A DNA stretch of 52,638 bases from a virus (lineage: Duplodnaviria; Caudoviricetes): IMG/VR virus record IMGVR_UViG_3300044846_006394, positions 1-52,638 of that record; one strand, given 5' to 3'. Each line of letters opens with the position of its first letter. The first letter of the stretch is position 1. Below, piece by piece: positions 47,309-47,418 of the stretch. Made by a program: the position numbers and the translations under genes. The notes under the pieces were generated by a model. It was not told the origin of the DNA and made no database searches. It saw only the letters and a program-made list of their open reading frames with translations.

Positions 47309-47418
47309 TTGACGGCTCCACCACTAGCCGATAATGTGCATAGCAGGGTTCTCCTAGCGATGGTGGTCGCTGCGGAAACGAAGCCCTCGGGATGGTGGTC
47401 CCGGGGGCTTCACCTTTT
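47309..47418 (+). ncRNA. Candidate small RNA unit (promoter, two GATGGTGGTC hairpins, terminator)
   Basis: TTGACG-N17-TAATGT; no credible ORF; GAAGCCCTCGGGA...TCCCGGGGGCTTC then ACCTTTT. Confidence 0.55.

Follow-up and report, generated by a model that had tools for sequence, protein, structure and literature searches.

The 169-nt spacer between two convergent genes (47297–47465) of a 52,638-bp provirus, referred to hereafter as the window, most likely encodes a conserved small RNA of a new family, which would act like the known kissing-loop and anti-Shine-Dalgarno (anti-SD) regulators. The window comes from an uncultured lake prophage, has 67% G+C and is estimated to be 70% complete. In its specific form, to which we give about an even chance, this reading takes the spacer as a gene for a plus-strand small RNA of about 75 nt, partly derived from a 3′ untranslated region (3′-UTR), that would pair with the leaders of early genes through an anti-SD end and through loop–loop contacts. 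Its main competitor is the reading of the region as an unusually constrained terminator. To our knowledge, few phage-encoded trans-acting RNAs have a worked-out mechanism, and the known ones mostly act on one neighbouring gene.

The first-pass annotation of the window had described a non-coding unit bracketed by a promoter and a terminator, and the motif positions that it named were all found, within one base. Its promoter, TTGACG-N17-TAATGT, is present: the −35 box TTGACG occupies 47309–47314, and the −10 box TAATGT lies at 47332–47337, 17 nt past it. Judging from this promoter geometry, the transcript would start at about 47343–47346, and its predicted 5′ end (47345–47355) carries the anti-SD sequence GGGUUCUCCU; the 3′ half of this stretch is able to pair into the base of the first hairpin. 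Hairpin 1 (47352–47376) is formed by pairing of 47355–47360 with 47367–47372 around the loop UGGUGG (47361–47366), and below this stem there are a bulge and a 3-bp lower stem. Hairpin 2 (47380–47411) has a 13-bp stem and again the loop UGGUGG (47393–47398), and GAUGGUGGUC is found at the tip of each hairpin. The tail ACCUUUUCC (47412–47420) forms a weak U-tract with four U residues; by our own count, ACCTTTTCC holds merely four T. The sole plus-strand open reading frame (ORF) across the unit (47309–47611, 100 aa) starts with a TTG within the −35 box, overlaps the convergent minus-strand gene and failed the composition-based gene filter. No accepted ORF thus lies between promoter and terminator, which is the layout of a small-RNA gene, and the unit looks like a non-coding transcription unit of the plus strand.

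The gene upstream of the unit (45875–47296, plus strand) encodes a DUF3987 primase/helicase-like protein, and its mRNA would read into the unit. No separate terminator stands between this gene and hairpin 2, and its mRNA is a probable second source of the candidate RNA, which would then be the 3′ end of the message. On the other side, the convergent 108-aa ORF (47466–47792, minus strand) has no family match. The sequence GATGGTGGTC occurs at 47359 and 47391, in the two hairpins, and also at 50737. The last site belongs to a third copy, CGGGATGGTGGTC (50734–50746, plus strand; E = 0.10), a 13-nt exact copy of the 5′ arm and loop of hairpin 2 that lies inside a 735-aa minus-strand ORF. The mRNA of this ORF would complement the candidate RNA over 13 nt; the copy may be a further pairing site or a chance occurrence.

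The promoter pattern is rare in the window. TTGAC[AGT]-N17/18-TAnnnT was found three times on both strands together, as compared with 0.16 ± 0.37 times in 100 Markov simulations, and all three matches are intergenic. Besides the one in the spacer, they lie at 45807 (minus strand), before the SNF2 helicase gene, and at 28633 (minus strand), before the small early gene cluster. It was also observed that these two matches, and not the candidate RNA promoter, carry a TTGACA-N3-TGTCAA palindrome over the −35 box, and similar palindromes exist upstream of the DUF3987 gene in three distant relatives (L006, L007 and L014). The palindrome looks like an operator, and a promoter free of it would fit an escape of the candidate RNA from a repressor. 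A late-promoter unit of the Q type was ruled out, as there is no plus-strand gene downstream.

The folding of the unit is stronger than expected. The 86 nt at 47340–47425 fold at −44.9 kcal/mol, while shuffled sequences gave −33.0 ± 3.2 kcal/mol (z −3.7; 0 of 200 as good), and the earlier claim of two hairpins with the same loop was thereby borne out, with UGGUGG displayed by both. In the three sequences from the window, L011 and L016 (L numbers denote the DUF3987 loci of relatives), 19 pairs were compared: all 57 cells are paired, and 10 pairs are changed on both sides, a result reached in 0 of 500 shuffles and approached by no slid register. The double-sided changes fall on five of the six pairs of hairpin 1 and on five of the 13 pairs of hairpin 2. 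The pair counts were restricted to three sequences because the four-locus MAFFT alignment misplaced hairpin 1 of L005; this locus keeps both hairpins with different stems. The UGGUGG loop is identical in eight of eight hairpins of these four phages, which represent two clades, despite the differing stems. The plus strand folds better than the minus strand in four of four loci (−41.5/−33.7, −44.2/−42.7, −40.6/−32.8 and −49.2/−41.8 kcal/mol), and 15 G-U pairs are found on the former as compared with three on the latter, about half of them being the U-G pair that closes the loop.

The conservation of the unit was examined among the relatives of the DUF3987 gene. In the protein collection, 61 relatives of the DUF3987 protein were found, among them closer ones of 83% and 76% identity, and an alignment of 23 of the 61 yielded nine loci from viral contigs and 18 from metagenome contigs; with this alignment no relative was found among the genome contigs, no related loci were found in the viral contigs with a single DUF3987 protein as the query, and blastn of 45800–48800 gave no match in the phage database. 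The DNA following the stop codon was read in 24 relative loci, and four classes were assigned by eye. Class A consists of L011, which has the same arrangement as the window: promoter, GG(G)TTCTCC, and hairpins 1 and 2, both with TGGTGG loops. In class B (L005 and L016), two TGGTGG-loop hairpins stand straight after the stop codon, without promoter or CU-rich stretch. In class C (L015, L017, L018 and L024), TTGACT-N17/18-TA(C/A/G)AA(G/C) is followed by a GAUCGG...CCGAUC hairpin, a CU-rich single strand, e.g., UUCCCCCU, and a terminator. The fourth class comprises the other loci, which mostly have one terminator hairpin with a T-run and an unrelated loop; the contexts of the most distant ones are different again. 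Classes A, B and C each form a clade in the protein tree; the branching order among them was not settled.

The comparison between the window and L011, whose proteins are 69% identical by tblastn and 64% in the tree alignment, clarified that the spacer is conserved as islands: TTGACG, CGATAA(T/A)GT, GCAGG(G)TTCTCC, both loops and the stem ends. The −35 box is invariant, the −10 box of L011 reads TAAAGT after 18 nt, and GGTTCTCC is invariant as well. L011 also retains the GGUUCUCC stretch, and it retains both stems through compensatory changes. The pattern TTGAC[GT]-N17/18-TAnnnN occurs within about 35 nt past the stop codon in six of 25 sequences (the window, L011, L015, L017, L018 and L024), and within 12 nt of it in five of those six; TTGAC stands at the same place in the four class C loci. 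The class C unit, in the same genomic position just past the DUF3987 stop codon, represents another candidate anti-SD small RNA.

Searches beyond these loci gave no further members. A covariance model of the module (R1), run over 441,843 bases of the window and its relatives, found the known loci and ordinary terminators only, so that one module exists per genome; its strongest extra match was at 2517–2585 of L016 (minus strand). When the viral collection was scanned for the class A motif, 103 stretches were found, roughly as many as expected by chance, and 11 of them had a nearby second TGGTGG; by eye, these 11 are unlike the unit, being without promoter, second hairpin or T-run. Among the matches listed for the two-hairpin module in the same collection (at least 134 in at least 120 stretches), none has both stems, and of 25 stretches with the class C hairpin, none has a CU-rich stretch and a terminator after it. 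The Rfam scan of the whole window at the gathering score gave only a tRNA-like element at 21855 and left the unit unmatched. When the E value was allowed up to 5 for eight loci, five weak matches appeared, of which one at chance level overlaps a unit of this kind (L018 4397–4480 with CyaR_RyeE; 23.5 bits against a 47-bit cut-off, E 4.6).

These results bear directly on the possibility that the region is a terminator and nothing else. Under this explanation, hairpin 2 serves as the terminator of the DUF3987 message and, in the opposite direction, of the convergent operon, hairpin 1 acts as an additional 3′-UTR stabiliser, and the boxes and complementarities are non-regulatory; the element would then be an unusually constrained terminator. 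The setting agrees with it. The spacer lies between convergent genes, the GC-rich hairpin resembles a bidirectional intrinsic terminator, and hairpin 2 occupies the place of the intrinsic terminator of the DUF3987 gene in the relatives, most of which show by eye a hairpin and a T-run here. The hairpins of L005 and L016 directly follow the stop codon without a promoter, compensatory changes are expected of any terminator stem, and another terminator of L016, which reaches 37 bits with the model, has stem ends and a tail in common with the unit. The tail of hairpin 2 has four U residues after a 13-bp stem; the relatives show clear T-runs at the same position. However, terminator loops normally vary, and those of the other relatives all differ, whereas the loop here is fixed in eight of eight hairpins and shared by a second hairpin. 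Moreover, GGTTCTCC and the two promoter boxes stand out as conserved islands from a diverged spacer, unlike the surroundings of an ordinary bidirectional terminator, and the promoter pattern is rare and elsewhere marks real intergenic promoter positions. We consider this explanation unlikely, though by no means negligible.

A further line of evidence for a small RNA that reads other messages is the distribution of the loop sequence in the window. The early and replication module, mostly on the minus strand, contains the genes for the SNF2 helicase, a family A DNA polymerase with a uracil-DNA-glycosylase (UDG) domain and an AAA_24 ATPase; a PD-(D/E)XK nuclease, a C5 methylase, an SbcC-like ATPase and a weak helix-turn-helix (HTH)/XRE-like protein are further members. 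TGGTGG/CCACCA forms the exact hexaloop of a stem of at least 4 bp at nine of 37 sites, as compared with 2.3% over all positions, and it is the top hexamer of all in the window for stems of at least 5 bp. When the two hairpins of the unit itself are left out, seven of 35 sites remain (binomial 1.4e-5), and L011 repeats the pattern (four of nine). In the mRNA sense, there are six CCACCA-loop hairpins with stems of 4–9 bp: five are located at, or within about 35 nt upstream of, the start of an early or replication gene, and the sixth about 50 nt upstream of a gene start. No CCACCA-loop hairpin was found among the hexaloop sites at the late genes (1–22 kb). The candidate RNA and the six sense-strand hairpins accordingly carry complementary apical loops, as in a kissing-loop pair.

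The individual hairpins are as follows, with the loop in brackets. CCCU[CCACCA]AGGG (45852–45865, plus strand) lies 9 nt before the DUF3987 AUG, and its 3′ arm is the likely SD; its place is taken by CCCU[CCACCA]GGGG in L011 and by CCACCAAGGGG in L005. CUCCUG[CCACCA]CAGGGG (45724–45741, minus strand) has 6 bp on the sense strand and precedes the UUG of the SNF2 helicase gene by N8; by our own reading, L011 has CCUCUG[CCACCA]CGGAGG here, with the loop block invariant. CCCU[CCACCA]AGGG is found again at 37940–37953 (minus strand), 7 nt before the AAA_24 AUG, and the AAA_24 orthologue of the class B phage G001 (73% identical; G001 is the record behind L005) keeps CCCU[CCACCAA]AGGG. GGCA[CCACCA]UGCC (35089–35102, minus strand; 4 bp) overlaps the start codon of the DNA polymerase gene. 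GCGC[CCACCA]GCGC (44049–44062, minus strand; 4 bp on the sense strand) is situated after the helicase stop and before the following gene, whose start is 44046 or 44013, and a 9-bp hairpin with the same loop (28120–28143, minus strand) separates two small early genes and lies about 38 nt ahead of the AGGAGACCCCC cassette of the next one. In three or more of the six hairpins, the SD is likely to be the 3′ arm. Both the DUF3987 and helicase hairpins have changed stems and the same loop in L011, and the G-U pairs of the helicase hairpin, in the window and (own reading) in L011, work solely on the mRNA strand.

The first-pass annotation had noticed start contexts complementary to the loops at four genes, and ATGGTGGT was indeed located there, within one base, at 25285, 27560, 35092 and 41976. 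These (G)ACCACCAT contexts belong to a broader pattern, namely the CCACCA-loop hairpins located at early gene starts or close to them. Of 76 start regions, 10 contain CCACCA, as compared with three of 277 internal windows of the same genes. The proportion of start regions with CCACCA is 13% in the window, 7% in G001 and 3%, 1% and 3% in G002, G003 and G004, respectively, three records without UGGUGG hairpins; against the pooled G002–G004, the difference gives P = 0.0006 for the window and P = 0.06 for G001. At the DUF3987 gene, CCACCA stands just 5′ of the SD in three of three UGGUGG-hairpin loci with a visible 5′ end (the window, L011 and L005) and before the SD in one of 20 other loci (L002); with the duplicates L009 and L010 dropped (one of 18), Fisher's test gives P = 0.003. 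Because the carriers form two clades, this co-occurrence is to be counted as one or two events, not three. It was also noticed that other short motifs are dispersed in these phages. A (G)GAATCGGTT(Y) core set in short stems is repeated 14 times in G001, and GCGAATCGATTCGC palindromes are numerous in G004; their ATCGAT core is also found in G002, where 41 of its 126 sites have stems. It seems that every phage carries a short dispersed motif of its own.

The other complementarity of the candidate RNA concerns its 5′ end. The best predicted target is the ribosome-binding site (RBS) region UCGC-AGGAGAACCC (38825–38842, minus strand) of a gene for a 152-aa HTH (XRE-like) protein (38366–38824), whose HTH_19 match reaches 27.3 bits, under the cut-off of 30.2. 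The exact 10-nt complement of this RBS, as claimed before, does exist: GGGTTCTCCT occurs on the plus strand solely at 47346 and 38829. The match extends to 14 of 15 positions, TCGC(T)AGGAGAACCC. The cassettes that were said to be one mismatch away also proved real (GGGGTCTCCT at 24606, 27781 and 28072). For the start-region tests, 70 genes were called with the simple composition-based filter. Among the 70 start regions, the 5′ 16 nt of the RNA gave the best duplex with the RBS of the HTH gene (−25.5 kcal/mol; 10 bp, a bulged A and 4 bp), followed by that with the SbcC-like gene (−24.2 kcal/mol). Duplexes of −17 kcal/mol or better were found for 16 of the 70 start regions, as compared with a mean of 2.2 for full shuffles of the 16 nt, which reached the best energy in two of 300 cases and the mean energy in one of 300 (P 0.003–0.007). 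The end of the RNA would thus be an anti-SD sequence tuned to the phage cassettes AGGAGA(A/C)CCC and AAGGGAACCC, at borderline significance. Near-identical start cassettes, of the type CCACCGACAGGAGACCCCCATG, were also seen before the small early genes (minus-strand starts 24605, 27229, 27561, 27779, 28070 and 28553).

Several observations weigh against the small-RNA reading. As for the unit itself, the bracketing by promoter and terminator stands insofar as the boxes, hairpins and loops are kept in L011, but a generic scan of 46500–48500 called neither element in the unit: it found no promoter, and its sole terminator call lay outside. The −10 box is poor, matching TATAAT at three of six positions, and the U-tract is short, with four U in the window and three in L011. 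Both the promoter pattern and the loop statistic were defined after the data had been seen. Among the 24 sequencing runs listed, there is no RNA run with the sequence of the locus; the DNA contig sets X9 and X12 span it without any difference, and X17 and X21 do not span it. As for the 5′ end, the advantage over full shuffles shrinks when UCUCCU is kept and only the flanks are shuffled: the best energy was then reached in 16 of 300 cases, the mean in 22 and a third measure in 12 (P 0.04–0.07). The exact 10-mer shared by the spacer and the window is at chance level, and blastn-short of the 169-nt spacer against the window gave 24 other exact or near-exact matches of 10–16 nt; what is unusual in the match with the HTH gene is its placement at the RBS and its extension, not the 10-mer itself. 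In the consensus fold, the 3′ half of the seed is paired into the base of hairpin 1, and about 5 nt are left free. The duplex of the whole RNA with the DUF3987 start region is no better than that of shuffled sequences (z −0.6 in the window and −0.1 in L011). The corresponding values for three class C loci, z −1.7 to −2.4, were given no weight; the method ignores internal structure and yields unrealistically long duplexes. As for the loops, the UGGUGG hairpins are limited to two clades, whose relation is not settled, and the loop site 25286, with merely 2 bp on the mRNA strand, was dropped from the set. Finally, G002, the record with L002, carries CCACCAC at two start regions and has no UGGUGG hairpins, while the helicase start of G001 lacks CCACCA; the CCACC-rich leaders may for these reasons be older than the candidate RNA.

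Even so, the small-RNA reading brings the two complementarities together in one scheme. The layout of the unit, its conservation and covariation, and the loop statistics across the genome are observed; what we infer here is the transcription of the unit, its pairing and the direction of its effect. A sigma-70-type promoter of its own (TTGACG-N17-TAATGT) would drive the candidate RNA, and the tail of the DUF3987 message is a probable second source. The RNA would carry the short 5′ anti-SD stretch (A)GGGUUCUCCU and the two hairpins displaying UGGUGG, the second of which would double as its terminator. The 5′ stretch would pair with SD cassettes, AGGAGA(A/C)CCC or AAGGGAACCC, with the HTH/XRE-like gene as the best match. 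The UGGUGG loops would kiss the CCACCA loops of hairpins that contain the SD, or border on it, at the DUF3987, SNF2 helicase, AAA_24 and polymerase genes, the contact being possible at two heads, each with four G-C and two A-U pairs. The order of the elements fits an antiparallel duplex, in which CCACCA lies 5′ of the SD in the mRNA and the anti-SD lies 5′ of UGGUGG in the RNA; a 5-nt bulge would remain. Docking on the early leaders would cover the SD and lower translation; with the SD covered in this way, repression is more likely than activation.

A real RNA may, however, have another partner. Under this alternative, which we regard as rather improbable, the UGGUGG loops bind an RNA-binding protein of the phage or host, the NCCA 3′ ends of tRNAs or other host RNA, and the RNA serves as a decoy or sponge. 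Conserved loops on varying stems are the usual mark of a loop read by a partner. The single-stranded part of a tRNA 3′ end, however, offers 4 nt only, and neither a protein nor a tRNA partner predicts that CCACCA should be the top hairpin hexamer near starts. A precedent for such action exists in E. coli, where SdsR, RseX and ArrS act on fepA through their terminator loops, apparently with no pairing to it, as far as described in the available part of PMC11979758.

The clustering of the hairpins in the replication module might also reflect a signal in the DNA. TGGTGG, often GNTGGTGG, would then be a recombination or replication signal, or a hairpin of single-stranded DNA, near the replication genes. 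GNTGGTGG resembles the Chi octamer of E. coli and Haemophilus, and several loops read GATGGTGG, GCTGGTGG or GTTGGTGG (own reading). TGGTGG is also commoner on the plus strand (27 as compared with 10) and lies on this strand at eight of nine hairpin sites. Yet Chi needs no hairpin, and the Chi sequences compared, those of E. coli and Haemophilus, may not be that of the host. Furthermore, the sites keep a short and fixed distance to the start codons, the 3′ arm containing the SD, the site before the plus-strand DUF3987 gene is inverted as an mRNA-level element demands, and the G-U pairs render several stems strand-specific at the RNA level. A DNA-level function is therefore, in our estimate, highly improbable.

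The last alternative turns the unit around. On the minus strand, it could be read as an orphan start region with two CCACCA hairpins, the SD AGGAGAACCC, an ATG (47342) and a 5-codon ORF, perhaps a leader peptide or the remnant of a lost gene. The layout on this strand is indeed the same as in the early start regions, and TCGC(T)AGGAGAACCC is common to it and the leader of the HTH gene. The mini-ORF, MHIIG, was nevertheless rejected as a conserved feature: by our own reading, L011 has ATA in place of ATG, with no other start there. In addition, no minus-strand gene follows, the DUF3987 gene being antisense, and the plus strand folds better in all four loci. A function of the minus strand can hardly account for the unit. 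The same likeness has a different value for the history of the small RNA. Since the minus-strand layout is like an early start region and shares 14 of 15 bases with the HTH leader, it is plausible that the RNA gene originated from an orphan start region transcribed backwards. We offer tentatively, as a possibility that we hold to be doubtful, a wider scheme that includes this origin: CCACCA would be one shared address on the leaders of the replication module, read by a single two-headed UGGUGG RNA that coordinates the translation of several genes through a double loop–loop contact, including communication between the 5′ and 3′ ends within the DUF3987 mRNA.

The closest worked example of the small RNA proposed here is OxyS–fhlA of E. 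coli, in which, according to the available part of PMC11979758, the terminator loop and a second loop kiss the target, with one contact at the translation-initiation region; kissing through two hairpin loops, one of them that of the terminator, is likewise proposed for the candidate RNA. The latter differs from OxyS in that it has no sequence relation to it and no Rfam match, presents the same hexamer in both loops with the complement spread over several phage genes, and also bears a linear anti-SD 5′ end; it is known here from sequence alone. The RNA c4 shares an operon with its target, is encoded upstream of it and is excised from a longer transcript. The candidate unit, in contrast, has its own promoter and stands alone, facing a convergent operon. 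The two are alike in being phage-encoded, in size and in RBS-directed pairing, which for the candidate is a prediction: c4 of P1/P7 is about 77 nt long and blocks translation by pairing around the RBS, with the complementary sequences probably in loops (available part of PMC12197685). The Rfam scans, at the gathering score or at E up to 5, gave no family at the locus that would be c4; the content of the Rfam c4 model was not checked.

The sar RNA overlaps ant. In the portion of PMC12197685 available, sar (P22) and OOP (lambda) are phage RNAs of 68–77 nt with their own promoters that act on regulator messages; OOP is cis-antisense to cII, sar is tabulated as trans, and sar, like c4, is a phage precedent for an RBS-blocking RNA. 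The candidate is likewise a short phage RNA with its own predicted promoter (compare PMC12197685). Its predicted targets, unlike those of sar and OOP, are 1.5 to 20 kb away. Among cellular RNAs, RsaE/RoxS and 6C have C-rich loops and an unpaired pyrimidine-rich stretch complementary to the SD, and they have many targets. The pyrimidine-rich stretch of the candidate RNA is also complementary to the SD, whereas its loops are G/U-rich and match a hexamer other than the SD; the comparison was made by the Rfam scans only, which gave no match.

On the target side, the early start cassettes of the window are similar in kind, and not by membership, to the start-associated sequences (SAS) and ESAS of the Cluster K mycobacteriophages, which are short SD-containing cassettes a few bases before the starts of non-structural genes, in that half of the genome only (available part of PMC3203893). 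The function of the SAS is not known, and the authors leave open whether the reader is RNA or protein (same part of PMC3203893). The 13-bp consensus there is GGGATAGGAGCCC, in contrast to AGGAGA(A/C)CCC and the CCACCA hairpins here, a comparison made without a consensus scan; the authors found little support for mRNA hairpins at the ESAS, whereas the stems here co-vary, and a candidate reader RNA is proposed here, whereas none is mentioned in the available part of that paper (PMC3203893).

Some further features of the window were noted. The tyrosine integrase gene is at 22377–23462. About 400 nt from it lies the tRNA-like element (21855–21962), which scores 45 bits with the Rfam tRNA model, has 3 nt in place of the anticodon arm, was not called by ARAGORN and is directly followed by a canonical terminator; it may be an attachment-site remnant or a tRNA-like RNA. 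ARAGORN called a 99-nt tRNA-Gly at 28949–29047 (minus strand) within the SbcC-like ORF (28802–30490); without Rfam support, the call is probably false. The UDG-superfamily domain of the family A DNA polymerase (32430–35093, minus strand) is located at the N-terminus.

The sequence predicts a specific and cheaply testable circuit, in which a linear anti-SD end and two identical loops face their complements at the starts of replication genes or close to them. If the prediction is true, it would show how a temperate phage could use translation to gate an entire early module, and it would add a natural multi-target case to the OxyS type of two-site kissing. It would also provide a candidate reader for start-associated sequence cassettes, so that unexplained cassettes of this kind elsewhere, such as the Cluster K SAS, may have phage RNA readers.

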